Shown here: one piece after another, positions 8,515-62,870 of the stretch
Layout of the letters: the number at the start of each line of letters is the position of its first letter
Numbering within the stretch: the first letter of the stretch is position 1
Source of the DNA: a virus
Virus record (IMG/VR): IMGVR_UViG_3300048924_000191
Location: 1-64,000 of that record
Direction: 5' to 3' (one strand)
DNA: 64,000 nt
The notes under the pieces: generated by a model
Seen by the model: only the letters and a program-made list of their open reading frames with translations
Databases searched by the model: none
Told to the model about the DNA's origin: nothing
Translations under genes and position numbers: made by a program

Positions 8515-8516
8515 AC

Positions 8517-9155: not shown

Positions 9156-9162
9156 AGTAAGG

Positions 9163-9196: not shown

Positions 9197-9200
9197 TGTC

Positions 9201-9398: not shown

Positions 9399-9411
9399 GC
9401 AACCTCCAAGA

Positions 9412-12029: not shown

Positions 12030-12095
12030 GATGCTTCTCCGTGAGAGCCCTGTACTATATGAAGTTTCATTAACAAATAACCGAGGGAGATCCTG

Positions 12096-48229: not shown

Positions 48230-48742
48230 ATGACCGAGAAGCAGATTCTGCTCGACCACTTGGTTTTGAAGAACAAAGCTGTACTCGACCAATATAAAGT
48301 CACGCTGCGTACTTCCGACCTTGACTTCAGTGACCCAGAAGCAGGTAACTGGGAGAGCGGTGACAATACTCGAATCATCGCCACCATGCGTCCCTCGAGG
48401 AAGGTGACAGGTAGCAATATCTATTACTACTCCAGGAACGACATGCAAGCCGCTTTTGCGGCGATTGGTTATGAAGAGGTACCGTGCGCCATCGAAGGTA
48501 CTCCAGACGTCGGTAAGGTCCTCTCAGAGCTTGCCAGGCACTACAACTTCCAGTTCGACCCGAACCACGTCCTCGATGTTCAACAAGTCGATGACCAGTT
48601 CTCGTTTGGTGTAAGTTCTAAGTGTTTGCTCTGGATCGGCACGCTCACCGTGAAGATCGTAGAAGGGTACGGAATCCCTCTCGATGTGGCGTTTCCCAAC
48701 AACGTTCTGGATGGATTCATACCGCCAGAGTTCGTGGGGTAA
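48230..48742 (+). CDS. paralog-family protein, class A (module only)
   Basis: ..DNTRIIATMRP..IYYYSRNDM..VLSELARHYNFQFDPNHVLD..CLLWIGTLTVKI..AFPNNVLDGFIPPEF. Confidence 0.6.
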   Translation: MTEKQILLDHLVLKNKAVLDQYKVTLRTSDLDFSDPEAGNWESGDNTRIIATMRPSRKVTGSNIYYYSRNDMQAAFAAIGYEEVPCAIEGTPDVGKVLSELARHYNFQFDPNHVLDVQQVDDQFSFGVSSKCLLWIGTLTVKIVEGYGIPLDVAFPNNVLDGFIPPEFVG

Positions 48743-48751
48743 ATTCTATGT
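48741..48751 (+). promoter_or_regulatory. AAATTCTATGT motif overlapping the stop codon (candidate internal promoter)
   Basis: The same 11-mer recurs at 49315..49325, in the same position relative to the preceding stop codon. Confidence 0.3.
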
Positions 48752-48778
48752 CCCTTTTATCAAGCAGAGAACCAGGTT

Positions 48779-49315
48779 ATGGCCACTGATTACACCCTTG
48801 ACGAAGACAGTGTCGTCATCGATTTGATCCGCACGCAGAACCCTGGCCAGGTCCTCACGTCCAGCCTGGTGACGTTCGGCTTCCCCAACGTAAACGTCCC
48901 AAGTCAGCAGTTCCCTCACGATACGCTGATTGTTGCGACGGCAATACCTGGACGCCGATATTCAGGGAGTCAGTCTTTCAACTACAACCGGGTGCCGATT
49001 GCTGAGTTCGTTGACCCCCGACTCCCCAACCAGACCACGTTCGTTATCGCTAATGAACGTACGCTGGCGGACCTGTTGCCTGTGATCAATGAGCGGTACG
49101 ACATCCGTCTGACTGCTGACAAGATCATCAACCATTCGATCCCCAATTTCCAGGATCAGGGAATTGCAGAGTTTGAGGTGGAGCTCGAAATCGCCCCGAA
49201 CTCGAAAGTGTACAAGGACGCAATGGTGATCAAGCTTGTTCCTGAGCTGATCCCGCTGTCGGCTGTTATCAAGAATCGCCAACTCGATGGCCTTACTTAC
49301 CAGCCTCCCGCCTGA
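48779..49315 (+). CDS. paralog-family protein, class A
   Basis: VIDLIRTQNPG..LVTFGFPNV..DTLIVATAIPGRRYSGSQSFNYNRVPI..LLPVINERYDIRLTADKI..NRQLDGLTYQPPA. Confidence 0.6.
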   Translation: MATDYTLDEDSVVIDLIRTQNPGQVLTSSLVTFGFPNVNVPSQQFPHDTLIVATAIPGRRYSGSQSFNYNRVPIAEFVDPRLPNQTTFVIANERTLADLLPVINERYDIRLTADKIINHSIPNFQDQGIAEFEVELEIAPNSKVYKDAMVIKLVPELIPLSAVIKNRQLDGLTYQPPA

Positions 49316-49325
49316 AATTCTATGT
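49315..49325 (+). promoter_or_regulatory. AAATTCTATGT motif overlapping the stop codon (candidate internal promoter)
   Basis: Second copy of the 11-mer seen at 48741..48751. Confidence 0.3.
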
Positions 49326-49372
49326 GACGTCTGTGACTCACTTACCCCACCTTCAACAAGAGAACGGTCCCC

Positions 49373-49918
49373 ATGGCTGACAATCTTACCTTAGAATCGA
49401 AGAAGGTTCTTTGCGACATGATCAACCGCAACAACGTGGAGTCCGGCTCCTCGTTGACGCCTGAGTTGGTGGATTTCGGTATCCCCTCTCAGTCGAACGA
49501 TGCGAAGAATACCGACATCACCGTTATTGCAAAATCCGGCTCTGGTTACACCGGTCAGGAAGTCATCAACTACAACCGCCTGCACCTGACCACCGAAATC
49601 GGTAACCCGTACGTGGCCTCGGCGGTTGGTCGTAACCTGATCTTCCCGATCGGTGAAGCGCTCAAGATCGCAGACATCGTTCCGGCCATCAACGCTCGTC
49701 TGGCCATCAACCTGCAAGCGGCTGACTTCACCGACGGCGATCTGCCTGAGTTCACCGGCACGCCGAACGAGATCCTGGACGTCCAGCTGTTGGTAAAGGC
49801 TGACTCGCTCTGCTACCGCGGCAGCTTGACCTTCCAACTCAAGGCCGAAGACATCCTGCTGTCGACCGTCATCGTGAACAAAGTGATGGATGGCCTGACC
49901 TACCAGCCTCCTGCTTGA
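49373..49918 (+). CDS. paralog-family protein, class A
   Basis: LCDMINRNNVE..LVDFGIPSQ..NTDITVIAKSGSGYTGQEVINYNRLHL..IVPAINARLAINLQAADF..SLCYRGSLTFQL..NKVMDGLTYQPPA. Confidence 0.6.
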   Translation: MADNLTLESKKVLCDMINRNNVESGSSLTPELVDFGIPSQSNDAKNTDITVIAKSGSGYTGQEVINYNRLHLTTEIGNPYVASAVGRNLIFPIGEALKIADIVPAINARLAINLQAADFTDGDLPEFTGTPNEILDVQLLVKADSLCYRGSLTFQLKAEDILLSTVIVNKVMDGLTYQPPA

Positions 49919-49946
49919 TTTCACCCCGATCAGACATAAAGCACAC

Positions 49947-49979
49947 AGACGAGGGGTGGGTTAACCCCACCCCTCGTCT
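49947..49979 (+). terminator. hairpin inside the co-directional paralog array
   Basis: agacgaggggtggg ttaa cccacccctcgtct (14-bp perfect stem plus a closing tt/aa pair, taken here as the loop). It lies between stop 49918 and start 50006 and separates the class A trio from the class B quintet. Confidence 0.6.
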
Positions 49980-50005
49980 ATTCTGCCCGATCTAGGAGAC
50001 GCAAC

Positions 50006-50803
50006 ATGTTTCTACTACCTGGCGGAGCGGAGAAAGCTCTGACTGATGCCATTCACGCAGCCAACCCGCTCGCCGGTGACGTGCATGTCGATGACCTGTA
50101 CTTCGGCCTGATCACCAAATCGGCTGACCAGTCGGGTGCTGTAGAAGTACCTGTAGTGGCGATGTACAACAGCGACTTCGAAGGCTACATCCGCTTCAAA
50201 TACGACCGTCTCGATCTGGGGCGTGCGTACCAGGGGATCAAACCTCAAGTCAAGCGTGTGGGTTATCCTACACTCTATCGACTGTTACCCATCATCAACG
50301 AAACGCTGGGTCTGTCACTGACTGAGCGTGACGTGGTCGACGTGGCCATTACCTGGTTGGGTGAGAACGAGCAGGTGAACATCCCTATCGTCTCCAAACC
50401 TGACTCGCTGGGTTACGAGGGACAGTTCCTTGTTGAATACACTCGGGTACGTCCGGAGTTGGCTTCGATTGCCAACCGAATCCTCGATGTGTTGAAACAT
50501 CCGTTGGACCCGAAGTTGGGACAACGTTCGATGTCGATGAACACTTGGGGGATCGACTTCACTGACGATCAAGCGTCCCTGTTGACTAACGCAGGTGCTT
50601 GGCGTTATCCCGATCAAGTACGCAAGGTGATGGAAGGTCATGGGTTCTTCAACTGGCCTCAAGCACCTTGGTACTCCCTGATCGTTTCGGCTACGTCGGA
50701 TATCCCCACTGCCAACAAGGAATACACGCACGTTATCATTCAACCGAACGTGTCGTACCCGAATCACATTGGCGACGCTTACTTCCACTATAACCGGTCA
50801 TAA
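50006..50803 (+). CDS. paralog-family protein, class B (module plus LHYN-type C-terminal domain)
   Basis: LTDAIHAANPL..LYFGLIT..AVEVPVVAM..FKYDRLDLG..LLPIINETLGLSLTERDV..SLGYEGQFLVEY..ends AYFHYNRS. Confidence 0.6.
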   Translation: MFLLPGGAEKALTDAIHAANPLAGDVHVDDLYFGLITKSADQSGAVEVPVVAMYNSDFEGYIRFKYDRLDLGRAYQGIKPQVKRVGYPTLYRLLPIINETLGLSLTERDVVDVAITWLGENEQVNIPIVSKPDSLGYEGQFLVEYTRVRPELASIANRILDVLKHPLDPKLGQRSMSMNTWGIDFTDDQASLLTNAGAWRYPDQVRKVMEGHGFFNWPQAPWYSLIVSATSDIPTANKEYTHVIIQPNVSYPNHIGDAYFHYNRS

Positions 50804-50815
50804 AGAGGGCTCGAT

Positions 50816-51649
50816 ATGAGCTTGTACCCTGATCCGCTAGAAGCCGTGGTAGAGTCCATCGAGACTCTCAACCCTGGCGTACAGCTGGCCGTAAACGAAT
50901 ACAACTTCGATCCTTCGATGGCGATTCCGGAAGAGGCTTCGGGTGTCAACACCCAGATCCATATCTCGGCCAAAGGTGCATCCACTCCATACGCCGGCGC
51001 TGTGGACATCAAACACATCCGCCTCAAGCTGTCTGACCTGACTACGCTGATCCCGTCAGAGATTGCCGTGAGTGGTATCACTACTACTCTTGATCTGGCG
51101 TTGGCGATCAACAAGTTCTACGGCACCAACTTCACCACTGCGGATATCGTGACCAGCGATGCTGAGTTGGTAGATGGCGCTGGCGATGTCACCCTGGTAG
51201 CTAAGGCCACTTCGCGTGGCTGGATCGGCCAGGTAACGTTCCATGTGACGAAGGGACGGATTCCTCTCACCGACGTCATTACTGTGACGCGTTTGCCCGG
51301 ACTCAACTACCCAGACCCGTACGAAGCCAAGCCTTTCGGTATTGCGTATACCTACTGGCGCGATTACTCCCTACAGCACGCTATCCTGGACGTTCTCCAG
51401 ACAGGTGCACAAGGAGACCTCGAAGCGGTCAAAGACGCCATGGTCAACACCACAGGCGATGCCTGGGTCACTACCGGCTCTAGCCGTTACTCTCTCGAGG
51501 GTGCGGAGATCCTTTACGTCGGCGATACCGCGGGCTATCCAGAGTTCAATCAGAACTACGAGAAAGGCGTCGTGGTTAAATTGAGTGCAGCCTGTCTGGG
51601 TTATTCCGGTCGTCTTTTCCTGCACTACAATCTGCCAGAAGTCCTCTAA
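50816..51649 (+). CDS. paralog-family protein, class B
   Basis: VVESIETLNPG..NTQIHISAKG..IKHIRLKL..LALAINKFYGTNFTTADI..SRGWIGQVTFHV..TRLPGLNYP..ends LFLHYNLPEVL. Confidence 0.6.
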   Translation: MSLYPDPLEAVVESIETLNPGVQLAVNEYNFDPSMAIPEEASGVNTQIHISAKGASTPYAGAVDIKHIRLKLSDLTTLIPSEIAVSGITTTLDLALAINKFYGTNFTTADIVTSDAELVDGAGDVTLVAKATSRGWIGQVTFHVTKGRIPLTDVITVTRLPGLNYPDPYEAKPFGIAYTYWRDYSLQHAILDVLQTGAQGDLEAVKDAMVNTTGDAWVTTGSSRYSLEGAEILYVGDTAGYPEFNQNYEKGVVVKLSAACLGYSGRLFLHYNLPEVL

Positions 51650-51660
51650 GGAGATAGGTG

Positions 51661-52440
51661 ATGGATAGCGGTGACAAGATCCGCGAGCTTATCAACCTCG
51701 CCAATGACCCTCCGAAGTTATTCACAACGCGTAACCTTCGTCTCGATGTTCCAGTCCCCGATGCGGGTGATGGTTGGAACACCAAGATGGAAGTGGAAGG
51801 TATCCCAGGCCGTGGTTATTACGGCACTGAGGAGATCTACTACAAGCGCATCCCGCTCGAACTGGTAGAACGTTCCACTCCGCTGCGTTCGATCGCTCCA
51901 CTGACGCCACAGCTCGTCCTGGACCTGTTCAACGGTGCTACCGGCCTGTACATCACACTGGAAGATGTCGAACCCTTCACGCCTCCTCAATTGGAGGACG
52001 GTGATTCGGGACAAGTCGACATCGTAGCAGTTCCATTGTCGATGGGCTTTACTGGTACTGCGACGATCCTGCTGGAGTACGGTAAGGCTTGGTTGGATAC
52101 GGTCGTTTCCGTTCGCGTGCTGCCGGTGCTGAAACATCCGATCGTCGTATTGAATCGGATGTCTACAAGGATGTTGACGTGGGGTATGGACTTCACTTCA
52201 CTGCGCGACGCCATCCGGCCTGACAGTAAAGGTGATTACTCCAACTGGGACGCTCTCCAAGCCGCTTGCGTGGAGCTGAACATCCCGACCTGGATGAAGA
52301 ACAAGATCACCGACCAACCGACGTCAGCGGTGCCTGACAGCAACCAACTGTTTGACCGTGTAGTGATTCAGGCAAGCGTATCCAGTGAAGGAATGGATGG
52401 CAAGGTCTACCTGCACTACAACAACCTGGAAGAGGTTTAA
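51661..52440 (+). CDS. paralog-family protein, class B
   Basis: ATG 51661 preferred (AAGGAG 7 nt upstream) over GTG 51658. IRELINLANDP..NTKMEVEGIPGRGYYGTEEIYYKRIPL..SMGFTGTATILL..ends VYLHYNNLEEV. Confidence 0.6.
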   Translation: MDSGDKIRELINLANDPPKLFTTRNLRLDVPVPDAGDGWNTKMEVEGIPGRGYYGTEEIYYKRIPLELVERSTPLRSIAPLTPQLVLDLFNGATGLYITLEDVEPFTPPQLEDGDSGQVDIVAVPLSMGFTGTATILLEYGKAWLDTVVSVRVLPVLKHPIVVLNRMSTRMLTWGMDFTSLRDAIRPDSKGDYSNWDALQAACVELNIPTWMKNKITDQPTSAVPDSNQLFDRVVIQASVSSEGMDGKVYLHYNNLEEV

Positions 52441-52442
52441 CC

Positions 52443-53390
52443 ATGCCACTATTCACCAAGCCGTCTCAAGCCTTGGTTTATGACCTCATCAATGAGGCGA
52501 ACCCGGACCTTCCGATCGTGCTCTCGCCAGCTAACTTTAAGTTGGGTGCCCCAGCCGCTGGTACGGTGCCTGGCCGTCCTGAGCTGAACACGGTAGTAAC
52601 CGGCTCGGCTATCGGTACCGACTACATTGGTCGTAAACCGCTCAACTACCAACGCCTCTCGCTCAACAGCCTGTTCCGTGGGATGGTGGTGCAGATCAAC
52701 AAGTATTCGGCTAACCAGAACTCTGGCTCGTCGGGTGCTATCGTATTCACCCTGTATCAGCTCCTGCCGATCATCAACACGCTGTACGGCATGAACCTCA
52801 CTGAAGACGACGTGACCAACGTCAACATCACGCGGGGTACGGCGCAAGAGAACGGTTTCTACACCTCGACCGTGACCGTGAATGCCAAGGCGACCTCGCT
52901 GGGCTACATCGGTTCGTTCGCACTGAAATGGCGCGGCGCTCCACAAGACCTCGAGTCGATGATCACCGTGACCGATCTCGCTGCTCGTCTGTTCCCAGGC
53001 GGTAACACCTTCGATGGCACTCACCCAGTCGTTGTCAACAACATGGCGTACAACATCGATTGGACGTCGTTCATCGCTACTGCACCGTGGGGTAACTTCC
53101 CAGGTAACCCAGTGGCTGGTAACGATACCCCAGCGTTCGGTAACCGGTTCATCGCAGAACTCAACCGTCTGTACGGTAAGGGTCTGGTGGGTTCGGTCAA
53201 CAACGCGCCTGCATACGCTTACATGGATTGGGGCGGTGTCGTATACGACCTCAGCACTCAAGCCGGTCGAGACGCCTGCCCTCTGGCTAACTCCAAGTAC
53301 TACAACCGTGTGCTGGTCTGGACTATCCCAGATTACGACACCGCGCGTGGTTCGGGTATCGGCCAACACTTCATCCACTTCAACGTCTGA
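52443..53390 (+). CDS. paralog-family protein, class B
   Basis: VYDLINEANPD..FKLGAPAA..NTVVTGSAIGTDYIGRKPLNYQRLSL..LLPIINTLYGMNLTEDDV..SLGYIGSFALKW..ends HFIHFNV. Confidence 0.6.
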   Translation: MPLFTKPSQALVYDLINEANPDLPIVLSPANFKLGAPAAGTVPGRPELNTVVTGSAIGTDYIGRKPLNYQRLSLNSLFRGMVVQINKYSANQNSGSSGAIVFTLYQLLPIINTLYGMNLTEDDVTNVNITRGTAQENGFYTSTVTVNAKATSLGYIGSFALKWRGAPQDLESMITVTDLAARLFPGGNTFDGTHPVVVNNMAYNIDWTSFIATAPWGNFPGNPVAGNDTPAFGNRFIAELNRLYGKGLVGSVNNAPAYAYMDWGGVVYDLSTQAGRDACPLANSKYYNRVLVWTIPDYDTARGSGIGQHFIHFNV

Positions 53391-53401
53391 GGATAGACTC
53401 C

Positions 53402-54274
53402 ATGGCGTACATGACTCAGTCACTCCCCGACGTCCTGGCGGCTATCAACGCCGCCAACTCGACGACGTACAAGGTCACCGAAATCGACTTCGGCGCACCT
53501 CAAGCGTTGTCGGGTACGTGGAAGGGGCAAGCAACATCCCGCAACACCGGTATCCGCATCACCGCCAAGGCCGGCAGTCCGTATCAGGGCAAACGCGATC
53601 TGACCTACGATCGACTGAACTTGGGTTCGCTGAATGCAACTAACCTCCCGGGGTTCAAGTGCTCGGCGTACAATGTCACCACCGTCTACACATTGCTGCC
53701 GATGTTGCAGTACTGGACCGGTATCCAGTTCACCACCGACGATCTGGAAGACGCGCCGCTGGTAGACAATGGTGACGATACCCATTCCGTCACTCTGACG
53801 GCCAAGACCACCAGCCTGGGCTGGATCGGTACCGCGCCACTGACCATCACCAAGGGCGCTGCCCCGCTGGATGCGTTGATCACAGTGACCTCGCTGAACG
53901 GTTTGAACTACCCAACCGCCAGTGATCAGGACACTTACGGTGCGATGTACCTGTACCCGTACGATTACACCAACTACTTCAGCACGCTGTCCCCAATCGC
54001 ACCAGGTACCCTCACCAGCACGCAAGCAGATGCCCTCGTGGCCATGCTCCTGGCTACCGACATCGGCGCCGGCAAGGCGCTGTGGGCGAACAACCCTGGT
54101 GCGACGGCGTGGAACCTGGCGAACGCAACGGTGGTCAGCAACGGTCTCAACAACCCGACCCTGCCAACCAACCCATCGTACAAATACGTGATGGGTCTGC
54201 GCCTCGATCCGGCTGTGTTGACTCCTGCGGGTCTGATGTACCTCCACTACAACGATCCATTCGACGCGTCGTAA
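53402..54274 (+). CDS. paralog-family protein, class B
   Basis: VLAAINAANST..IDFGAPQA..NTGIRITAKAGSPYQGKRDLTYDRLNL..LLPMLQYWTGIQFTTDDL..SLGWIGTAPLTI..SLNGLNYP..ends MYLHYNDPFDAS. Confidence 0.6.
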   Translation: MAYMTQSLPDVLAAINAANSTTYKVTEIDFGAPQALSGTWKGQATSRNTGIRITAKAGSPYQGKRDLTYDRLNLGSLNATNLPGFKCSAYNVTTVYTLLPMLQYWTGIQFTTDDLEDAPLVDNGDDTHSVTLTAKTTSLGWIGTAPLTITKGAAPLDALITVTSLNGLNYPTASDQDTYGAMYLYPYDYTNYFSTLSPIAPGTLTSTQADALVAMLLATDIGAGKALWANNPGATAWNLANATVVSNGLNNPTLPTNPSYKYVMGLRLDPAVLTPAGLMYLHYNDPFDAS

Positions 54275-54331: not shown

Positions 54332-55357
54332 ATGCTTCGCGCCATCTTCGGTTTCGACCACATCGCAAAGAACGTGAGCGACACGTGGCTGCCAAACTGC
54401 GGTTATGTTTTTAGCAAGACCGCCTCAGGCACCAACCGTGGGGTCATCATTACACCTGACGGATCGTTGGCTGCGACACCCTCTACCGGCAACACGCCGT
54501 ACGTTCAGGTGTTCCACGATCTGTCCAAACACCTGGTTGCGCCTGTTAGCACATTCACCATCGGTATCCGCGCTAAACAGTTGGCGTTAGGCAATAGTGG
54601 TGGTTTCCTATACCTAGCCGCTGAGGCAGTCCCTACCTCGTTCATGTTGCTGTTGAACTTTCAGCAATTGACGAATATCGGCGTTGTGGGTGGCGAGAAC
54701 TATATTGAGATCACATTCGATCTGATAGCAGCTACCGCCACCTACTACATCGACGACGTGTTCTTTACCAGCATCTCCATCAACACGATCTCGTTGGCTA
54801 ACCTAAGAGCCGGCATCGTCCAGGTGGTCTACACGCTGAGCTACCCGGCCAACGTGGCGGGTATCACGGCAGTGCGTGACATCTACCTGACCGACAACTA
54901 TCCAGGTGATGGTTACGTGGGTCGTCTGGGTCCTCGCAAGATATTCCCTGTTACGCTTGACAGCGCCTCAGGAACTGATTGGACCACCAGCGATGGGTCT
55001 GGGCTTCTGACTGCTCTAAACGTCCCTATCGAGACGGCTGGAGCTGCTACCATGACCTCCGGCGTCAGCAAGGCACCACTGGTGGTGGGATTGAACCCAG
55101 GGTCTCTACCAGCGAACGCCAACGTCGATGGCGTATTCGTCATGATGGCCGGTAAGGTAGATCAGGCCGGCGCACTGACAGGTCTCTCGGCAACCAACGG
55201 CGGGAAGACCATTCTCGCTCAGTCGAAGGCGATCGGCACGGCGTTCAAGTACGGCAACCCATTCGGTGTGTTCACCCGCGCCCCTAATGGCAGTCGCTGG
55301 ACTGCTGCTTCCATCGACGCGACCACGCTCTCATTGACTCCAGACGTAGCGAGTTAA
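54332..55357 (+). CDS. class C protein: N-terminal strand motif plus jelly-roll-like domain plus conserved C-terminal domain
   Basis: MLRAIFGFDH..YIEITFDLIAATATYYIDDVFF..VRDIYLTD..VGRLGPRKIFPVTLDSASGTDWT..WTAASIDATTLSLTPDVAS. Paralogous to 57278, 58330 and 59995. Confidence 0.6.
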   Translation: MLRAIFGFDHIAKNVSDTWLPNCGYVFSKTASGTNRGVIITPDGSLAATPSTGNTPYVQVFHDLSKHLVAPVSTFTIGIRAKQLALGNSGGFLYLAAEAVPTSFMLLLNFQQLTNIGVVGGENYIEITFDLIAATATYYIDDVFFTSISINTISLANLRAGIVQVVYTLSYPANVAGITAVRDIYLTDNYPGDGYVGRLGPRKIFPVTLDSASGTDWTTSDGSGLLTALNVPIETAGAATMTSGVSKAPLVVGLNPGSLPANANVDGVFVMMAGKVDQAGALTGLSATNGGKTILAQSKAIGTAFKYGNPFGVFTRAPNGSRWTAASIDATTLSLTPDVAS

Positions 55358-55360
55358 GCC

Positions 55361-56377
55361 ATGTCATTAACCGTACGGGCAGTGCAAGCTTACGCGCTCG
55401 GTAAACCACTGGCAGCTTCCACGGTTCGGTCGATCACCGCTTATGCGCTGGTTGATACGAACCCGGTGGTTCCTGGTCCACCGGCGCCTACTGATTACAA
55501 GGCCGATCAGATCGACATCTTGTACGATCTGATCGAGAAGAGTAACCCGGGTTTCAAAGCGCAATATCCGAAAGGTACCGTGCAGTTCAGTGCGGTGACG
55601 GCGGTTCCCACGGTACCTGGGGATGGGTACAAGACCGATACGTCGATCTTGGTGTCTCCGGCACCTGGTAGTTCGGCACTGGGTCGTCAGACGGTTCGTT
55701 ATCGCCGTATCGATTTCGGTACCATCTTCAAGCACATGACGCTGACCCTGAACGATTACGTCGCTTCAGGTACGTTGTCAGCGGCGACGTGGAAAGCTTC
55801 GTTTGCCTCGAAGTTTGGGATCAAGATTCCTGCTGCAGACATTGCCAACACGACAGCGCTGACTAGCGGTGTGTTGACCAACATCAACGTGATCGCCACC
55901 AGCTGGTGCTATAAAGGTACTGTGCAGTTGACGTGGACGGTAGGACCTCGTCCTTTCACCTCCATCGTCACGGATGCAAACCGTGCGCTGGTTGGGCGGT
56001 TTTACCCAGGCAATAACAACGACTTCACCACCCCCGGCCGTAAACCGCAGGGTGAGATGTTGGTCTACTGTCAGGACGCCAGTGTTATCTCGTCGTTCCT
56101 GGAAGCGTTCACTAGCGCTTCTGTTCTCGCCTCGTCCCACAGCACAGTTATCAACTTGGTTAACTGGCTGCTGGCTAACACGAAGCGCACGGATTGGAAC
56201 GTCGGTGATTCCTCCTCTGGATCAGGTGGTGTAACCGGACTGACCTGGTATCGGTACACGCTGCCCAATGCCGCTATCCCAGATGCCAACTCCGCCAAGT
56301 ACAACCGTTGTGTCGTCTTGCAAAGCGTGGCCGGTAGTTGGTTCGCTGGCAAGATCATCATCCACTACAACGTGTAG
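55361..56377 (+). CDS. paralog-family protein: 2 tandem strand-motif repeats plus module plus LHYN-type end
   Basis: TVRAVQAYALGKPLAAS / TVRSITAYALVDTNPVV, then ILYDLIEKSNPG..TSILVSPAPG..VRYRRIDFG..SWCYKGTVQLTW..ends KIIIHYNV. Confidence 0.6.
   Translation: MSLTVRAVQAYALGKPLAASTVRSITAYALVDTNPVVPGPPAPTDYKADQIDILYDLIEKSNPGFKAQYPKGTVQFSAVTAVPTVPGDGYKTDTSILVSPAPGSSALGRQTVRYRRIDFGTIFKHMTLTLNDYVASGTLSAATWKASFASKFGIKIPAADIANTTALTSGVLTNINVIATSWCYKGTVQLTWTVGPRPFTSIVTDANRALVGRFYPGNNNDFTTPGRKPQGEMLVYCQDASVISSFLEAFTSASVLASSHSTVINLVNWLLANTKRTDWNVGDSSSGSGGVTGLTWYRYTLPNAAIPDANSAKYNRCVVLQSVAGSWFAGKIIIHYNV
55370..55471 (+). repeat. 2 x 51-nt coding tandem repeat (17-aa units)
   Basis: Units TVRAVQAYALGKPLAAS and TVRSITAYALVDTNPVV. 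Confidence 0.6.
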
Positions 56378-56385
56378 GGTCCGTC

Positions 56386-56880
56386 ATGGGTATTTTCGTA
56401 TCAAGCCAGGCGGACTTGATTGCGATGATCAACGTTGCGAGCGGTGTCAACTTCACCGCTTCCGACTTGGTCTTCGGCAAACCAAGAGCCGCTACCTCCG
56501 CTGAGATCACTCAGTTCGGAAAGAACAGCGCTGTCGCTGTGCGGGCCTCCGATACCACGACGTTGGTGGCCGGATTCACGACCTTCTTCTACGACCGACT
56601 GGATCTGAAGACGCTAGAGCTCTTTGACTTGACCACATGCTTCTGTGCAGACGGACTGGCCAAAGACGCGTGGTTGGGTACCGTCATCGGTTACCTCAAC
56701 GTCCCGTTCACGCCGACACATCTGGTCGAACACAGCTCGACTACGGTGAACGGTAAAGTGAATGTCCAACTGGAAGCCACGACCGATAGCCTGGGTTGGT
56801 TCGGCACAGGGACGTTGGTGTTCGGTGGTTATCCAGATATCTCGACAGCCTTCACTGACAACAAATTGACAGGCTTCTAA
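56386..56880 (+). CDS. paralog-family protein, module only (N-half of a split class B architecture)
   Basis: Start moved to ATG 56386 (MGIFVSSQADL). LIAMINVASGV..LVFGKPRA..NSAVAVRAS..FFYDRLDL..SLGWFGTGTLVF..ends DNKLTGF. Confidence 0.55.
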   Translation: MGIFVSSQADLIAMINVASGVNFTASDLVFGKPRAATSAEITQFGKNSAVAVRASDTTTLVAGFTTFFYDRLDLKTLELFDLTTCFCADGLAKDAWLGTVIGYLNVPFTPTHLVEHSSTTVNGKVNVQLEATTDSLGWFGTGTLVFGGYPDISTAFTDNKLTGF

Positions 56881-56895
56881 GCCGAGGAATCGATC

Positions 56896-57273
56896 ATGAA
56901 TGATTGGCCGAACTACCTGATCCGTCAGGACTTCACCGAACCAGGTGAGGTGCTGAGTGTGATCCCGCTGGGCCTACTCAACGAGGCGGATCAGCGACTG
57001 ATGGCCCAAGTGCTGTCTGAGTACGCACCGCAAGTCGATAAAGACAAGTGGAACATGGACGAGCACGGCACGGAATATAGCCTGAATGGCGCTGAGGTCA
57101 TCTACAACGGTCTCAACCATCGCGACCTGCCAACCTTCAGCACGTACAAGTACGCCCTCGGGTTGCGCTTCCCAGAACGTTCTACGGCACCCGTAGGTAC
57201 TATCTTCCTGTGCTGGCATGAGCCGGTGGAGGAAGAGCCAGTTGCTGAAACACCACCTGTGAGTGAGGAGTGA
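56896..57273 (+). CDS. stand-alone LHYN-type C-terminal domain (C-half of a split class B architecture)
   Basis: ..EYSLNGAEVIYNGLNHRDLPTFSTYKYALGLRFPERSTAPVGTIFLCWHEP aligns with the end of 53402..54274 (WNLANATVVSNGLNNPTLPTNPSYKYVMGLRLDPAVLTPAGLMYLHYNDP). Confidence 0.55.
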   Translation: MNDWPNYLIRQDFTEPGEVLSVIPLGLLNEADQRLMAQVLSEYAPQVDKDKWNMDEHGTEYSLNGAEVIYNGLNHRDLPTFSTYKYALGLRFPERSTAPVGTIFLCWHEPVEEEPVAETPPVSEE

Positions 57274-57277
57274 TCTC

Positions 57278-58312
57278 ATGCTTCGTGCAATGTACGGTTT
57301 TGATCACTGTGTCAGAACTCCAGCACCTGCCGTTGGTGCTGTGAACAACCCTTCGGTAGGTTTCGGTTACGCCAATGCCACACTGCTGAACCCTACCCTC
57401 ATGGCGGTGGACAGTAACGGTTTTCTTGGCGGTTACTCCTCAGCTCAGAACGTCAACCTGGCGTTCGACATGACGGGTCTGATTCCACCTAACCCGACCA
57501 AGGTCACGTTCGGTTGGCGTGTAAAGACCCTCCAAGTCTACGGCGCTGCTCACGCGATGATCTCGTTCTCGGTCCCAGGTACGCCTAACGATACGACTGC
57601 GTACATCATCCAGATGGCAGCAGCCAACGCCCCGTGGCTGCCAACGGTAGGTAACGAGGTCTACGTCGAGCTGACTTACGACTTCGTGACGTTCACGCCT
57701 ACCCTCACAGTCAACGGCGTCCCTGTGACTGCTACGATCGGTAGCGCTCCTAACACCGCTCAGAAGGCTGCGTTCGTGTCGGGTGCCTGGACGATCAACT
57801 TCACGCTCGCCAACACCGTGAACGCCCGTTATGCCTACCGCGACATCTACATCGTCGATGCGGTGGCGGGTGACGGCATGGTGGGTCCGCTCGGTCCTCA
57901 GAAGCTGTTTCCAATCACCTTGGACGCCGCAGCAGGGGCTGGCTGGACACCTTCGTCTGGTACGCTGTTGGATGTGTTGAACGCTGCCTTGCCAGCTAAC
58001 CCAACTGCCACTTCGCCAAGCGACAAGACTCCATTGGTCACCAGCCTTAAGACCAGTGCTCCTGAAGGTAGTCGTGTCACTGCGGTGAGTCTGTCGTTGT
58101 CGGGGACCAGTAGTGGTGACGGGGCATCGACCAGTAAGGTTGAGATCACCCAAAACAGTCAGAGCTTCTCACCGAAGTTTCCCGTCGTGGCGAAGACTAC
58201 CACCTACGGTGCGCCAATCGGGATCTTCCCGAAAGCGCCTGATGGCACCTCGTGGGATCTGGCAAAAATCGATGCGACCACCCTCAAGCTGACCCCTGAC
58301 ACCGCCGCCTGA
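57278..58312 (+). CDS. class C protein (jelly-roll-like plus conserved C-terminal domain)
   Basis: Start moved to ATG 57278, GAGGAG upstream. MLRAMYGFDH..VYVELTYDFVTFTPTLTVNGVPV..YRDIYIVD..VGPLGPQKLFPITLDAAAGAGWT..WDLAKIDATTLKLTPDTAA. Confidence 0.6.
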   Translation: MLRAMYGFDHCVRTPAPAVGAVNNPSVGFGYANATLLNPTLMAVDSNGFLGGYSSAQNVNLAFDMTGLIPPNPTKVTFGWRVKTLQVYGAAHAMISFSVPGTPNDTTAYIIQMAAANAPWLPTVGNEVYVELTYDFVTFTPTLTVNGVPVTATIGSAPNTAQKAAFVSGAWTINFTLANTVNARYAYRDIYIVDAVAGDGMVGPLGPQKLFPITLDAAAGAGWTPSSGTLLDVLNAALPANPTATSPSDKTPLVTSLKTSAPEGSRVTAVSLSLSGTSSGDGASTSKVEITQNSQSFSPKFPVVAKTTTYGAPIGIFPKAPDGTSWDLAKIDATTLKLTPDTAA

Positions 58313-58329
58313 TTCGAGGATTTATCATC

Positions 58330-59298
58330 ATGGCAGTTAGAGCAATTATCGGGTTCGACCACCTGCCGCAGAACGACACGAGCTGGATTAACTACGCCAG
58401 CCACGACATGACGCGCGCCGCAGACTTGTCGGCCCAAAACACCATCGTCAACGGATGGCTGGTCAGTAACGCTACTGCATCGGGCGCTGAGCGCGTAACC
58501 ATTCCTCTCGACAAATACCTGGTCGCTCCGGTAGCCAAGATCTGGTTCGGTATCCGCTGCCGTTCTACTCTCAACGCGCGTGGCGGTGCAGGCATCATCT
58601 ACCTGAACGGCACCTACGTGTTGTTGGATACGTTGATCGGCGTCACGGGTACTACCACGTACCTTGAGTTCTCCTACGACGTTGCCAGTGGTGCTGTAGA
58701 ACGTTGGATCAATGGCGTCAAACAGGCTAACGGTACCAGTCCTGGTGCAGGTCTGCGTAACCTCACGTTCGGCTTGGAAGCCAAGGGTAGTCTCAACGGT
58801 CGATACGACTGGCGTGATATCTACGTCGTCGATGATCAGGGAGCTGCACAAGGTTTGCCGGTAGGTCCTCTTGGCGCTCAGGTGACTTACCCCATCACTT
58901 TGGATGCGGCTTCGGCTTCGGACTGGACCACCACTCCGAGTGGTGCCACCCTGCTCGAAGCGTTGAACGAGCCTGGTGCGGTCCCTACGGCTAAAATCGC
59001 AACGTCGGCTTCCAACGCTCCTCTGACGGTGAGTCTCAAGTCCTCAATGCCTGCGGGTGTCGTGGTCAATGCCATCGAACTCATGGGCGGTGGTCGTTCG
59101 ACCACGACCAGTACGGCGAAAGTCGCGGCGAAGATCTCGACGGGCGGTACGGATGTTGCAGGTCTGACGCCCGTTGCGCCGATCACCAACTATGCGTACA
59201 GTCTTGGGTTCGGTGTGTTCCACAAGGCTCCGAATGGCACCCCGTGGACCAATACCAACATCGACGCTACGGATCTTGTCCTGACGCCTGATGTTTAA
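58330..59298 (+). CDS. class C protein
   Basis: MAVRAIIGFDH..TYLEFSYDVASGAVERWINGVKQ..WRDIYVVD..VGPLGAQVTYPITLDAASASDWT..WTNTNIDATDLVLTPDV. Confidence 0.6.
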   Translation: MAVRAIIGFDHLPQNDTSWINYASHDMTRAADLSAQNTIVNGWLVSNATASGAERVTIPLDKYLVAPVAKIWFGIRCRSTLNARGGAGIIYLNGTYVLLDTLIGVTGTTTYLEFSYDVASGAVERWINGVKQANGTSPGAGLRNLTFGLEAKGSLNGRYDWRDIYVVDDQGAAQGLPVGPLGAQVTYPITLDAASASDWTTTPSGATLLEALNEPGAVPTAKIATSASNAPLTVSLKSSMPAGVVVNAIELMGGGRSTTTSTAKVAAKISTGGTDVAGLTPVAPITNYAYSLGFGVFHKAPNGTPWTNTNIDATDLVLTPDV

Positions 59299-59309
59299 GG
59301 GGATTCTCC

Positions 59310-59981
59310 ATGCCAGTCAATATTGCAAACATCCAAGGCTACGCATTGACGCGCCTAGCCTCGCCGGTGAACATCGCCAACATTCAGGGTTACGTGCTGG
59401 CTAACCCACCTGCGCCCGTCCAACTGCGAGACATCCGTGGTTACGTGATGGTGACTGCGCCAGCGCCCGTTCAGTTGCGGACCATCAATGGCTACGCCAT
59501 GGTCCCGTTCCAGGACTTGCCGAAAGGTAAGACGGCAGCAGTGGCATTGATGGACATGATCCTCGTTCGGTTGAAGAGTGCCCGTCCAGCCTCGCACTTC
59601 AATTTGGGTGCTGTGGAGCTCGGTACCGAGACCGACTACAACGCCAAGGTGAAGTTGACACCGAATGCGGTAGCCTTATTGTCAGGGGAGATGTACTTCC
59701 ACTACAACCGGATTTATCTGTCACGGATGCCGAGTCTGAGTTCGATCGTGATCGGGAGCGCGGCTAACACCCACGCCCTGATTCCAGCGATCAACACTCT
59801 CACCGGCATGCAACTCACCACGAACGACATCGTGAATGAGGACATTCCAGCAGGGTACGTGGAAGTCACTCTGACTGCAGCGGCTACCAGTTATCTGTTC
59901 ATTCCAGGGACTCAGTGCCAAGTGGGTAACACACCGTCGCTGGCAGCTCAGTTCAAAACTGACACGATCCTCTGGTCGTAA
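59310..59981 (+). CDS. paralog-family protein: 4 tandem strand-motif repeats plus module
   Basis: Four 17-aa units, then LMDMILVRLKSARP..VELGTET..KVKLTPN..YFHYNRIYL..ALIPAINTLTGMQLTTNDI..TSYLFIPGTQCQV. Confidence 0.6.
   Translation: MPVNIANIQGYALTRLASPVNIANIQGYVLANPPAPVQLRDIRGYVMVTAPAPVQLRTINGYAMVPFQDLPKGKTAAVALMDMILVRLKSARPASHFNLGAVELGTETDYNAKVKLTPNAVALLSGEMYFHYNRIYLSRMPSLSSIVIGSAANTHALIPAINTLTGMQLTTNDIVNEDIPAGYVEVTLTAAATSYLFIPGTQCQVGNTPSLAAQFKTDTILWS
59313..59516 (+). repeat. 4 x 51-nt coding tandem repeat (17-aa units)
   Basis: PVNIANIQGYALTRLAS / PVNIANIQGYVLANPPA / PVQLRDIRGYVMVTAPA / PVQLRTINGYAMVPFQD. Confidence 0.75.
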
Positions 59982-59994
59982 GGAAAAACAAACC

Positions 59995-61086
59995 ATGAAG
60001 ATTCATGCGATGTACGGTTTGGACCTGCCGACCACGAACGCGACAGGCAACGGCAGTAACGTACTTATCACTCGGCTGCCAAACGGGCCGTGGCAGTCGA
60101 TGTCGACAAACAGCGAAACCAATTTCAGTATCCAGGTTTGGACGGATGGATGGCTGAGAATGGGGATCGGTGCCGGAGCTCCGAACTTTGGCAACTATCG
60201 ATTCCGCGCCGTAGCTGACATCAAGGAAATGATCCCAGTCGTTACACCAACCTCGAACTTGTACTTTGGCGTTCGGGTAAAGGCCGGTACCGGATACACC
60301 GGCAGTACTGTGGTGACGTTGTCTTCCGCGGTAGACATCAATAACCTGGTCAACCTGTTCCAGATCACGGATCTGCCCGGTTACGTGATCGATAAGTCGT
60401 ACTACGTAGAGTTTAACTTGAACTTTGCGAACAACACTATCGATCGCCGTGTCGATGGTAAACCACTGGCGCAGATGGCCATGCCTGCTTGGATGGCCAC
60501 CGCAGTATCTGCGTCGCCTGGCGGTACCAGCGTTTATGTGGGTATCGGTGCCAGCTTCTCGTACAGTATCAGTCAGGGCCAAACCCACTACTTCTGGTGG
60601 CGTGATTTCTACTGCGTCGAGTGGGAGGCTGGGGAACTCGCTCAGTTTCTGGGTCCTCAGGTGGTGGAAAAGGTACCTGTCGATACAGTGGCGGCTACTG
60701 CCTGGACTGCTAGTACTGGCACTGCGACTTCGGTCTTGAAGACGGGGTACAGTAACCCATCCACTGCCATCGGCGCTCCAACCCTCACCACCGACGATGC
60801 GATGACGCCGGGTAGTATCACCTACAACCCCACCAACATTCCAGTGAATGCCGTTCTCAACGGTATCCTCGTGAAGGGACGCTCAGCAGTGAGTGTAAAT
60901 GCCACGGGCAACTTGGGCGTCTCCGCTACGGTCGGTGGGGTGGAGTCTTCGGATGCCAACGTAGCGATGGTAGCTGCGCAGACGTTCTACGACCGGATGT
61001 TGTTCCTCACTAAAACCCCAGGCGGGCTACCATGGACTCAGCCAGCGTTGGCGGGCCTTACCGTCAAAGCCAAACCGAAGGTGTAA
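59995..61086 (+). CDS. class C protein (most divergent member)
   Basis: MKIHAMYGLDL..YYVEFNLNFANNTIDRRVDGKPL..WWRDFYCVE..FLGPQVVEKVPVDTVAATAWT..WTQPALAGLTVKAKPKV. Confidence 0.6.
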   Translation: MKIHAMYGLDLPTTNATGNGSNVLITRLPNGPWQSMSTNSETNFSIQVWTDGWLRMGIGAGAPNFGNYRFRAVADIKEMIPVVTPTSNLYFGVRVKAGTGYTGSTVVTLSSAVDINNLVNLFQITDLPGYVIDKSYYVEFNLNFANNTIDRRVDGKPLAQMAMPAWMATAVSASPGGTSVYVGIGASFSYSISQGQTHYFWWRDFYCVEWEAGELAQFLGPQVVEKVPVDTVAATAWTASTGTATSVLKTGYSNPSTAIGAPTLTTDDAMTPGSITYNPTNIPVNAVLNGILVKGRSAVSVNATGNLGVSATVGGVESSDANVAMVAAQTFYDRMLFLTKTPGGLPWTQPALAGLTVKAKPKV

Positions 61087-61089
61087 TCC

Positions 61090-62292
61090 ATGGCTAACCC
61101 TAAATTCGTACTTCGATCGCTTGACGTGTTTGCGATGTACGGCGTGAATAATCTTCCGCCGTTTGGTACCCCTGGTCCTGCTGCGATTCTTACAGCGATC
61201 AACAAGGAGCAGGGCATCACACTCACCTCAGCACAGGTCACGGTTGGTGCGCCTGTAGCAACGACAGGCGACACGTTGTTCAATACCTCGGTGACACTGA
61301 CATCAATCCCTAACAAGGGGTTTAAAGGGACGTTCACGGCTCGATACAACCGAGTCAGTGGCAGTCTGTCAGCGGTGTTGAACAACCTCACCATTCCCGG
61401 TGATGGAGCTTTCACGGTAGGTACCACTCACGACCTTATCCCTCTGATCAACACAGCCACGGGCTTGACGTTGGTTACTGGAGACATCGTGAATGAGGCC
61501 ATTCCGGTTGGGACAAACTCGGTCGATCTGAAAGCTGCTTCCACGAGTTACTTCTTCCTGCCTGGGTCGACCTTCAAGGTTTACGCAGGTGAGATCGCAG
61601 GTGAGCCGTGGATGTTGTTCGACGTGAACTCGTTGACTGACGTCAAGACCACAGGTTCGACGGGTACGCTGGCAAGTGCAGCGCAGGACAACACGTACTT
61701 GATTGATGGGGAACCTACCCTGAAGATCACCGGTACGGGTTCCCTGACGATCAACCTCGGTCAGTTGTTTGATTCGAGTATTCCTGAATGGACGCTGGAA
61801 TGGTCGAGTCGTTTGAACACGACCACCACAGGCTACGCTAACCTGCTCCGTCTTGGCAGTGCGACGGCGTACCAGCTGGTGCAACGGACTTCCGATTCTG
61901 GTTTCGGTCTGAGGATACAGCAAGGTATCGACTTCTCGACACAAGCCGGTGCATGGAACTTCCCGTTCGGCAGCGTTGCGAAGAACGGCGTGCTGACTCG
62001 TTACGCCGCTCAGAAGAAGAATGGTCTCATCACCATGTTTGTGGACGGTAAAGCTACCAACATGGCCAATGGTACCGGTTCGACCTACAACAGTAAATCG
62101 TTTTCCGCAGGCGCCGGTGTTGCAGCGTGTGACCGGATTACCCTGGGACTTCTGGCGCAAAACATCAGTCATGTTCGTCTCAGTAAGTTCGCTCGGTATC
62201 CGATCGACTACACGCCGAAACCGTTCAAGTCTGCTCCAACGCTTGCGCAAGCTGCACCGAACACCGATCTCTCTGGATTCGATCCAGCATAA
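61090..62292 (+). CDS. paralog-family protein: strand motif plus module plus LamG/concanavalin-like C-terminal domain
   Basis: LDVFAMYGVNN..ILTAINKEQG..VTVGAPVA..NTSVTLTSIPNKGFKGTFTARYNRV..LIPLINTATGLTLVTGDI. A LamG-like pattern follows: EWTLEWSSRLN..LITMFVDGK..ISHVRLSKFARY. Ends NTDLSGFDPA. Confidence 0.6.
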   Translation: MANPKFVLRSLDVFAMYGVNNLPPFGTPGPAAILTAINKEQGITLTSAQVTVGAPVATTGDTLFNTSVTLTSIPNKGFKGTFTARYNRVSGSLSAVLNNLTIPGDGAFTVGTTHDLIPLINTATGLTLVTGDIVNEAIPVGTNSVDLKAASTSYFFLPGSTFKVYAGEIAGEPWMLFDVNSLTDVKTTGSTGTLASAAQDNTYLIDGEPTLKITGTGSLTINLGQLFDSSIPEWTLEWSSRLNTTTTGYANLLRLGSATAYQLVQRTSDSGFGLRIQQGIDFSTQAGAWNFPFGSVAKNGVLTRYAAQKKNGLITMFVDGKATNMANGTGSTYNSKSFSAGAGVAACDRITLGLLAQNISHVRLSKFARYPIDYTPKPFKSAPTLAQAAPNTDLSGFDPA

Positions 62293-62345: not shown

Positions 62346-62870
62346 TTAAGCCTCGGCGTCGAAACCACTCAGGTCAGTGGTAGTCGCCGCTTCATCCAAA
62401 GGGACGTCAGCGTCCGGGATGTCCAGGACGGCGGCGTAGGTGCCGGTGTACAGCAAGCTGGACACGTTGGCGACCACGTCGGCCGAACCCGGGGTATCTT
62501 CGTTCACTGGGCGAACGATGTTCGACAGAGTGAATTCGGATTCCAGCAGACCCAGAGCGGTAGCGATCTTGGTCTTGACCTGTGGGTCGGTGTCGGAAGC
62601 TGCGATCACCACCGGAATATCTTTGGCGGCAGCGATTGCCTGGCCGGAAGCCAGAGCCAGACGGGTGTAGGAGAAAGTCTGCGAACCAGAGAAACCCTGG
62701 TTGGCGATTGCGGTGAAGGTCACCGAGGTGTTACGACCGCCAGTACCGGCAGCGGCCGAAGGCGCACCGACGGTAACTTTGGCCAGAGTGGCGTTCAGAC
62801 CGGCGTTCGCACTGTTGACCAGTGCCAGGACGTTCTCCTGAGCCGTGATGGACGGGTTGATCTTTGCCAT
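62346..62870 (-). CDS. paralog-family protein, class A, encoded on the opposite strand
   Basis: ORF track 62346..63068. Start moved to ATG 62870 (MAKINPSITAQ). VLALVNSANAG..VTVGAPSA..NTSVTFTAIANQGFSGSQTFSYTRLAL..SSLLYTGTYAAVL..ends TTDLSGFDAEA. Confidence 0.6.
   Translation of the reverse strand: MAKINPSITAQENVLALVNSANAGLNATLAKVTVGAPSAAAGTGGRNTSVTFTAIANQGFSGSQTFSYTRLALASGQAIAAAKDIPVVIAASDTDPQVKTKIATALGLLESEFTLSNIVRPVNEDTPGSADVVANVSSLLYTGTYAAVLDIPDADVPLDEAATTTDLSGFDAEA

Follow-up and report, generated by a model that had tools for sequence, protein, structure and literature searches.

Tandem 17-residue units on DUF7941 fibre subunits of a jumbo phage as candidate pegs for lectin-like heads

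Introduction

The first 64,000 nucleotides of IMG/VR virus record IMGVR_UViG_3300048924_000191 (positions 1 to 64,000; hereafter the window) derive from a jumbo phage of about 244 kb. At 54332-62292 of the window, a run of consecutive genes on the plus strand, delineated by open reading frame (ORF) calling, encodes two kinds of protein side by side. Four are lectin-like proteins, here called class C (C1 to C4), and the others are members of the DUF7941 family, three of which (55361, 59310 and 61090) carry two, four and one copies, respectively, of a short peptide unit at their N-termini. These units, and the way in which they are linked to the class C genes, are the subject of this work.

The units may bear on host recognition by chimalliviruses (phiKZ, Goslar and their relatives). 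In cryo-electron microscopy (cryo-EM) studies of 2026 the peripheral baseplate and its fibres lay beyond resolution, and a "fibre cloud" of DUF7941 proteins was proposed. DUF7941 itself is chimallivirus-specific and was characterised in 2026 (bioRxiv 10.64898/2026.04.21.720040; PMC13250141). By AlphaFold 3 (AF3) prediction and negative-stain EM, its members assemble head to tail into filaments, each protomer being joined through its linker to the N-terminal domain (NTD) of the next (bioRxiv 10.64898/2026.04.21.720040). They are anchored at the peripheral baseplate (phiKZ gp126/gp127), and some members have carbohydrate-binding domains (bioRxiv 10.64898/2026.04.21.720040; PMC13250141).

A first-pass annotation of the window proposed that one N-terminal strand motif opens the class C proteins and recurs in tandem in their neighbours, where it might act as a docking strand for a common receptacle or help to build a branched fibre. 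Here we describe the units, their relatives in other phages and their association with class C genes, and set out a tentative reading in which they tether lectin-like heads to DUF7941 subunits.

Results

Gene content of the block

The block opens with the gene for C1 (54332-55357; 341 amino acids [aa]), a predicted two-domain lectin-like β-sandwich head whose N-terminal strand MLRAIFGFDH is encoded at 54332-54361. It is followed by 55361 (55361-56377; 338 aa), a full-length DUF7941 protein with an N-terminal extension of two units, the cores of which are LTVRAVQAYAL (55367-55399) and STVRSITAYAL (55418-55450), and by two genes without units, one for a DUF7941 NTD only (56386-56880; 164 aa) and one for a DUF7941 C-terminal domain (CTD) only (56896-57273; 125 aa). 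Next come C2 (57278-58312; strand MLRAMYGFDH at 57278-57307) and C3 (58330-59298; 322 aa; strand MAVRAIIGFDH at 58330-58362). C2 is 344 aa long when counted from an ATG within a longer GTG-initiated ORF, and its orthologues begin at the equivalent ATG. These two genes precede 59310 (59310-59981; 223 aa), an NTD-only DUF7941 protein with four 17-aa units (a1, 59313-59363; a2, 59364-59414; b1, 59415-59465; b2, 59466-59516). Finally, C4 (59995-61086; 363 aa; strand MKIHAMYGLDL at 59995-60027) precedes 61090 (61090-62292; 400 aa), in which a DUF7941 NTD is followed by a jelly-roll-like C-terminal half ending in a DUF7941-type tail, NTDLSGFDPA. The single N-terminal unit of 61090, FVLRSLDVFAM (61105-61137), is supported by relatives. 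All of these genes and features lie on the plus strand.

At the C1/55361 and C4/61090 junctions (55355-55363 and 61084-61092) the two genes share a frame, with a stop and one codon between them. Programmed readthrough from class C into the next gene was considered and rejected: the gap is 2, 3 or 5 nucleotides in relatives, which therefore points to tight coupling. Every related locus, like Burkholderia phage FLC9 (gp318/gp317), also has this DUF7941 divided into an NTD gene and a CTD gene. FLC9 is the nearest phage by tblastn, at 24-26% identity, and megablast found no near-identical phage in GenBank.

All three unit-bearing proteins belong to DUF7941. Their bit scores against PF25613 (cut-off 27) are 99.4 for 55361 (E = 3e-28 over residues 45-337), 50.8 for 59310 (E = 2e-13) and 66.6 for 61090, and they match phrog_1037, "virion structural protein", at E = 8e-33, 4e-16 and 1e-21, respectively. 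At least eight neighbours without units are DUF7941/phrog_1037 proteins as well (48230, 48779, 49373, 50006, 50816, 51658, 52443 and 53402). In the AlphaFold2 model of 59310 the NTD is confident, with a predicted local distance difference test (pLDDT) of 80-91. In PDB it has one significant match, to chain 9xqd_0 (E = 2.5e-4; template-modelling [TM] score 0.60 on the target); this chain of 150 residues belongs to the outer peripheral baseplate of phiKZ, and the Goslar preprint identifies it as the gp127 NTD (bioRxiv 10.64898/2026.04.21.720040). Searches with Pfam and PHROGs found no T4 gp10-like branching domain in 55361, 59310 or 61090, returning only DUF7941-type families and phrog_3545, and the structure search of 59310 likewise gave no gp10-like domain but the phiKZ baseplate chain alone.

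The DUF7941 paralogues of the region (48230-54274, 56386-56880, 61090-62292 and, on the minus strand, 62346-62870) have in common a motif after the NTD, L..φφTVTxLxGLNYP, where φ is a hydrophobic residue. NTD-only members end exactly in this linker motif (...LxGF(D)), as in ...NNVLDGFIPPEFVG, ...LDGLTYQPPA, ...DNKLTGF, ...NTDLSGFDPA and ...TTDLSGFDAEA. In the published filament model, this motif is probably what docks, as a strand, on the following protomer.

The class C proteins

As the first-pass annotation had said, a short motif opens all four class C proteins, whose N-termini read M-x-φ-R/H-x-φ-φ-G-φ-D-H. The AlphaFold2 model of C1 (pLDDT 88; predicted TM score 0.86) has two β-sandwich domains, with residues 2-6 (LRAIF) forming a strand at pLDDT ~89. 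In Foldseek searches against PDB this model matched legume lectins, botulinum neurotoxin Hc, GH16 enzymes and carbohydrate-binding modules (E ~1e-5 to 1e-6). It also matched many uncharacterised virion proteins of non-jumbo phages (TM score up to 0.77, E down to 4e-18). As modelled, class C is a two-domain β-sandwich of the concanavalin A/legume-lectin kind. No Pfam family was found for these proteins, and matches to phrog_2448 are weak (E = 4.5e-6 for C1, 4e-7 for C3 and 8e-3 for C4; none for C2). Sequence searches against solved structures gave nothing useful for class C, DUF7941 or the unit array.

C1 to C4 are mutually homologous, and their domain bodies vary while the N-terminus, hinge and C-terminus are conserved. 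Paralogue identity is 49% over the first 12 columns, 44-46% in the inter-domain hinge and 41% over the last 35 columns, and 27% overall. This is the pattern expected for exchangeable receptor-binding heads with a fixed attachment frame. We assume class C proteins to be part of the virion, given their fold, the location of their genes and a homologue in BFVD that bears the name "virion structural protein".

The N-terminal signature is kept in about 50 homologues, including those of FLC9 after start correction. The GenBank starts of FLC9 gp313 and gp312 are apparently too far downstream, and upstream in-frame sequence restores MTLRALWSYDH and (M)ALRDYWGMDN (L001, the FLC9 locus: 10439-11539, 11639-12652 and 6924-10394). 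ORFO of Vibrio phage VpV262, which has a homologous fold, begins MAILDFNTG; it has neither the GFDH signature nor a unit-bearing neighbour. Because this homologue begins in that way, the N-terminal hydrophobic strand is probably an old part of the fold. A comparison of A2 with VpV262 ORFO by hhalign was not significant.

The 17-residue units

Residues 2-69 of 59310 consist of four head-to-tail units of 17 aa (PVNIANIQGYALTRLAS, PVNIANIQGYVLANPPA, PVQLRDIRGYVMVTAPA and PVQLRTINGYAMVPFQD), and the two copies in 55361 are also spaced by 17 aa (V5 and V22). Both arrays agree with the first-pass annotation, and every peptide that it quoted is present in the gene to which it was assigned. The single copy that it reported for 61090 exists as well, but not at the position given: LDVFAMYGVNN is out of register and overlaps the unit FVLRSLDVFAM (residues 6-16), which starts five residues upstream. 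Two subtypes can be told apart, namely a (φ-N/K-φ-A/S-x-φ-Q-G-Y-A-L) and b (φ-x-L-R-x-φ-x-G-Y-A-M). The Gly-aromatic centre of the units is conserved and the segment between units is Pro-rich.

A DNA tandem repeat or a recent duplication was rejected as the origin of the array. Tandem Repeats Finder found no DNA-level repeat, and 11 of the first 12 residues are identical between units 1 and 2 of 59310, nine of these 11 being encoded by different codons. These units, a1 and a2, are nearly identical as protein and differ at most synonymous sites. The repeat is therefore maintained at the protein level. Across 36 orthologue pairs, the proportion of nonsynonymous differences (pN) is 0.25 in unit cores, 0.23 in the folded NTD block and 0.40 in inter-unit linkers, a comparison made at saturated synonymous sites (pS ~0.7); by this measure purifying selection acts on the unit cores as strongly as on the folded domain.

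A profile hidden Markov model (HMM) built from the units of 30 orthologues, when run over all six-frame ORFs of the window, matches only 55361 (twice, at residues 5 and 22) and 59310 (four times). The first-pass annotation had named in advance a lack of N-terminal enrichment in a genome-wide scan as an observation that would tell against its motif. Scanned within the window, its pattern was enriched, with nine matches in the first 70 aa of 67 crude genes, all inside this block, compared with 1.5 ± 1.2 (maximum 5) in 200 shuffles.

In the AlphaFold2 monomer of 59310 the array shows no regular fold: residues 1-56, which hold the first three units, are disordered (pLDDT <50), and residues 58-64 of unit 4 (TINGYAM) form a low-confidence strand (pLDDT ~62). 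Such disorder is typical of peptides that fold on binding.

The repeat, for which the first-pass annotation had suggested a search of other jumbo-phage genomes, is conserved in about 25 related phage loci and in FLC9, with a spacing that is nearly always 17 aa. Metagenomic contigs of ~250 kb encode 29 relatives of 59310 at 44-75% identity, in which units start at residues 3, 20, 37 and 54 throughout and number four, three or two. In FLC9, gp310 has eight N-terminal units, again 17 aa apart (residues 5, 22, 39, 56, 73, 90, 107 and 124).

Association of units with class C genes

Class C genes, DUF7941 genes and units were annotated in the window, in FLC9 and in about 25 related loci (numbered with an L). 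Every unit-bearing DUF7941 protein is encoded directly downstream of a class C gene or fused to one, and paralogues elsewhere are without units; the first-pass observation that the multi-copy proteins directly follow class C genes thus extends to every related locus examined. Over about 20 non-redundant loci, an N-terminal extension of at least 12 aa occurs in 48 of the 51 DUF7941 proteins that follow or are fused to class C, against 4 of 161 others (Fisher p ~5e-39). The three and four exceptions are artefacts, which arise from a DUF7941 HMM built with 55361 among its sequences and from start calls that in some genes reached too far, to an upstream ATG.

In the annotated loci the number of units is never lower than the number of adjacent class C genes. 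In several loci one class C gene goes with one or two units and two class C genes with two, three or four. Three units accompany two class C genes in L008 and L010, where the spacing is 17 aa and the first unit, SLRSVDVYVAV, matches FVLRSLDVFAM of 61090. Larger clusters have larger arrays: five class C genes precede six units in L036, a more distant jumbo-phage contig (L036:4564-10819), and six go with eight units in FLC9. L035, likewise a more distant jumbo-phage contig, has one array of six units after two class C genes and another of nine units, at an 18-19-aa period, which goes with two class C genes plus a further one downstream (L035:4973-11960). A strict stoichiometry of two units per head was rejected, as ratios run from 1 to 3.

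Units and class C genes are also gained and lost together. C1 and both units of 55361 are present together in the window, L005, L008, L017, L019 and L021, and they are absent together from at least nine loci. The 55361 orthologues of those loci lacking C1 are about 300 aa long, have no extension and start MADPGTPATNYK, exactly where the units would end. In L005, C3 is missing, and the units missing with it are exactly the a-type pair. Across these gains and losses the DUF7941 paralogue set stays constant. Gain and loss of units with particular class C genes against this constant DUF7941 set fits pegs for the heads better than a scheme in which units and head strands are both plugs.

The subtypes follow particular heads. 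In L017, C2 is followed by two b units, C3 by two a units and C7 by a pair of its own. L014 has one fusion of C3, an a unit and an NTD, another of C1, a unit and DUF7941, and a C2-like gene with a b-like unit after it. Class C, unit and DUF7941 stand in one ORF twice in L014 and also in L017/P0070, and in these fusions the unit begins 2-8 residues past the final β-strand of class C.

To judge by gene order, co-occurrence and fusions, the units may bind the heads. The reading that we put forward, tentatively, is that the units are pegs which tether lectin-like class C heads to a DUF7941 fibre subunit and so give branched fibres with several heads. It would account for the gene order and the count rule, for joint gain and loss, for the way in which subtypes pair with heads, for the fusions, and for the fact that free units are disordered and under selection.

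Relation between the unit, the class C N-terminus and the DUF7941 linker

The first-pass annotation had treated the class C N-termini and the tandem units as a single motif. The core φ-R-x-φ-x-G-aromatic is indeed common to both, but a single family is not what the profiles describe: on sequence grounds these are two motif families that have only this core in common. The unit HMM does not match class C N-termini, and positions +2/+3 after the Gly are D/E-H/N in class C and A/V-L/M in units. In BLOSUM profile-profile comparisons with a column-permutation null, made in a register that was anchored on the Gly post hoc and is the best of seven shifts, the unit scores modestly above the null against the class C N-terminus (z = 3.2, p = 0.0014). 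Against the DUF7941 linker, the class C N-terminus scores z = 3.3 (p = 0.0006) and the unit z = 2.3 (p = 0.026). Cross-scoring of the three with frequency position-specific scoring matrices is weak (z = 1.1-2.8), the BLOSUM comparisons being somewhat stronger, and the class C N-termini resemble the units only weakly.

These scores bear on the main rival explanation, in which units, class C N-termini and the DUF7941 linker are versions of one plug strand (φ-x-φ-x-x-φ-x-G-φ-x-φ) for a groove of the DUF7941 NTD, at the contact from which the head-to-tail filament is built. A multi-unit protein would then be a branching node that joins several DUF7941 subunits, and heads would plug directly into DUF7941 domains. 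It draws on the linker motif common to DUF7941 paralogues and on the ...LxGF(D) ends of NTD-only members, on the resemblance of both class C N-terminus and unit to the linker, and on the Gly-anchored register being the best of the shifts. The published filament, with its linker docked on the next NTD by AF3 and negative-stain EM (bioRxiv 10.64898/2026.04.21.720040), points the same way, as does the monomer model of 59310, where part of unit 4 is a β-strand beside the NTD.

However, the register was picked after inspection, and the p-values are modest once corrected for about nine registers. At +2/+3 the units depart from linkers and class C N-termini alike, and the class C model has its N-terminus inside the fold, not as a free tail. 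Moreover, 17 extended residues span ~6 nm, less than the ~7 nm reported for the protomer spacing in the filament. No DUF7941 paralogue co-varies with the presence of units, and the explanation does not predict their restriction to class C neighbours, the scaling of their number or their joint loss. We regard it as doubtful. The first-pass claim that class C heads and adaptors plug the same strand into one receptacle is not supported in the form given: the class C N-terminus is predicted as an integrated β-strand, the units are disordered and the motifs differ after the Gly. What finds support is the docking-like character of the units, which show conservation and selection, lack order on their own, sit at N-termini and are portable, with a copy number that varies.

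Arrays in other proteins

An exhaustive profile search of 1.84 billion representative proteins returned 31 matches. Most are arrays of four to nine units preceding a DUF7941 domain, one (P0070) is the fusion of class C, two units and DUF7941 described above, and a few lie in other settings: P0073 (GH16), P0060 (discoidin and TIG domains) and P0062/P0063. The unit-to-unit spacing is exactly 17 aa in 43 of 60 cases taken from divergent arrays. A four-unit array profile had no match in PDB below E = 1, and no Pfam repeat family was found on the array-rich proteins.

Two of these other settings deserve description in their own right. In L037, an unrelated tail-fibre cluster without DUF7941, the GH16 protein P0073 has six tandem units of the form AKLRISSxSGFA, and the gene two upstream of it has a single copy of such a unit near its N-terminus (AAKLRISKVTGFATAKV), a one-copy versus many-copies pattern in a different system (L037:4919-6160 and L037:7515-8954). 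In L038 (700-4400), P0062 has twelve C-terminal 17-aa units (φSKφφAYAVφ..PP..). Around it lie at least three paralogues, each 311-320 aa long, which start MTILWCGGEDIDF and end ...NPxTxxxFTxxEIxALQVA. Their ends recall class C termini, but hhalign against the L038 paralogues was not significant.

The regular spacing could instead mean that the array is a fibrous shaft, which folds only on oligomerisation into a regular β-structure, for instance a β-spiral or β-solenoid, where a strand, a Gly turn, a second strand and a Pro-rich loop follow one another, so that copy number sets the length of a short stalk. The resemblance of the class C N-terminus would then be incidental, or the heads would add one rung. 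The 17-aa period holds in arrays that share little sequence, FLC9 included, and the conserved Gly-aromatic centre with its Pro-rich inter-unit segment suits such a fold. The disorder of the units in the monomer model is usual for fibre shafts, arrays are internal or C-terminal in P0073, P0060 and P0062, and the repeat recalls the 15-17-aa triple β-spiral repeat of adenovirus and reovirus fibres. Yet arrays of one or two units (61090, 55361 and L014) are too short for a shaft, two subtypes within one array track different class C genes, and the array profile has neither a solved-structure match nor a Pfam repeat family. The restriction to genes downstream of class C is left unexplained as well. 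On balance a shaft seems improbable. It is very unlikely that two unrelated features have been brought together here, the first β-strand of an old phage β-sandwich (a fold found in many non-jumbo phages at TM scores up to 0.75-0.77, VpV262 ORFO among them with neither GFDH nor a unit-bearing neighbour) and a DUF7941 extension to whose HMM the class C N-termini are invisible, their similarity and part of the gene-order rule being by-products of class C-DUF7941 fusion and fission without present interaction, since purifying selection on unit cores equals that on the folded domain, copy number tracks class C count in the independent lineages FLC9, L035, L036 and L017, and units are deleted together with their class C gene at precise boundaries.

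Elsewhere in the window are genes for a phiKZ-type major head protein (39617-41947, minus strand), a large virion structural protein (23508-26438, minus strand), a DnaB-like helicase (42671-44215, plus strand) and an SbcC-like protein (9591-12029, minus strand).

Discussion

If the units are pegs for heads, the assembly might proceed as follows. The 17-aa units would act as docking peptides, short and intrinsically disordered, which a DUF7941 fibre subunit carries at its N-terminus. Each unit would capture one class C head by β-strand addition to the β-sandwich of the head. The likely docking edge would be formed by the conserved terminal strands of the head, because in fusions the unit sits 2-8 residues past the last class C strand; the geometry of strand addition we infer from the same arrangement. 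The DUF7941 NTD would then insert the loaded subunit into the head-to-tail DUF7941 filament and the peripheral-baseplate network. Several receptor-binding heads could in this way be carried per fibre subunit, in the window C1 on 55361, C2 and C3 on 59310, and C4 on 61090. The branched fibre of the first-pass annotation fits this context, the carriers being DUF7941 NTDs, which build filaments at the chimallivirus baseplate.

New heads might be acquired as cassettes, in which a class C gene arrives with its own peg coding sequence, placed in frame at the 5' end of a DUF7941 gene. With more reserve than for the pegs themselves, we consider it possible that this cassette is portable in a wider sense. 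The lectin-like gene would travel with its own 17-aa peptides, the subtypes would make up a limited code of recognition, in which a pairs with C3 and b with C2, for example, and copy number would set the heads per subunit, so that multi-specific branched filaments could be re-programmed through linear motifs, not through folded adaptor domains.

Several points weigh against pegs. A spacing of 17 aa that hardly varies is more than independent pegs would call for, and it may point to a regular structure in which the units co-fold. The strand of unit 4 (residues 58-64) in the monomer model is presumably paired with its own NTD, and this would fit units that bind DUF7941 rather than heads. One class C gene of L035 has no unit-bearing gene after it, and the unit-to-head ratio is variable, from 1 to 3. 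Similar arrays occur in phages without recognisable class C or DUF7941 genes (the GH16 protein P0073 and the discoidin and TIG protein P0060). Finally, as syntenic relatives the loci are not independent of one another, and the association reflects perhaps 6-8 separate evolutionary events rather than 51. The models are partly compatible: a single regular sheet could form from units and head strands folding together.

The block suggests how separately encoded lectin-like heads may join the DUF7941 network, namely through short tandem peptides, and it yields a simple rule, based on sequence, by which pairs of head and carrier can be sought in the genome of any jumbo phage. Should the pegs prove specific, they would provide a compact, transplantable handle for host-range engineering, with peptide and head swapped as a cassette. 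The system would be a natural example of multivalent assembly via linear β-strand motifs. Partners and peptides are defined to the residue, which makes the question directly testable.

Among known systems, the shafts of the adenovirus fibre and of reovirus σ1 are triple β-spirals, whose 15-17-aa repeat has hydrophobic residues in alternation, turns at a Gly or Pro and includes a loop that varies. The units resemble them in repeat length, in hydrophobic alternation, in the Gly or Pro turn and in belonging to a virus attachment protein. They differ in that arrays of a single unit are possible, that subtypes are linked to different neighbours, that the attached domain is not known to trimerise and that no sequence or structure match connects them. 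β-strand addition by linear peptides is known from donor-strand complementation in chaperone-usher pili and from the tandem β-zipper that FnBPA forms on fibronectin F1 modules. By analogy with these systems, the units would be short amphipathic strands with a conserved Gly, disordered alone and folding by completion or extension of a partner's sheet, and the tandem repeats of the FnBPA β-zipper likewise bind several partner modules. Unlike the proposed pegs, however, those are cellular or adhesin systems with no sequence relationship to the units, for which we infer strand addition.

Closer at hand are the filaments of Goslar gp22/gp23 and phiKZ gp126/gp127, to which the unit-bearing proteins are related through PF25613 and the match of the 59310 NTD to 9xqd_0. 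In that system, too, a disordered segment of one protein docks on a folded domain of another, as we propose here. The docking element in the published work is the linker after the NTD, and heads are covalently fused after the DUF7941 module (bioRxiv 10.64898/2026.04.21.720040; PMC13250141). Neither N-terminal 17-aa arrays nor separate upstream lectin-like proteins are described there, and a peptide array on the carrier side is without a described counterpart.

The first-pass annotation knew of no described equivalent, and this needs qualification, the nearest systems being those in which secondary receptor-binding proteins (RBPs) dock through short N-terminal peptides: the hepta- and undecapeptides of K1-5/SP6, gp63.1-gp66 of G7C and the "conserved peptide" of RBP2 in Klebsiella KP32/KP34 (PMC6872550, PMC13352976). 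Their socket is a folded T4 gp10-like branching domain, of which none was detected in the present carriers, whereas the carrier here bears tandem linear peptides of 17 aa, variable in copy number, on DUF7941. As in those phages, the putative RBPs have a short conserved N-terminal segment and are otherwise variable (49% over the first 12 columns in class C), their genes adjoin the carrier gene, and, if the proposed role of the carrier is right, several exchangeable RBPs would be held on one carrier.

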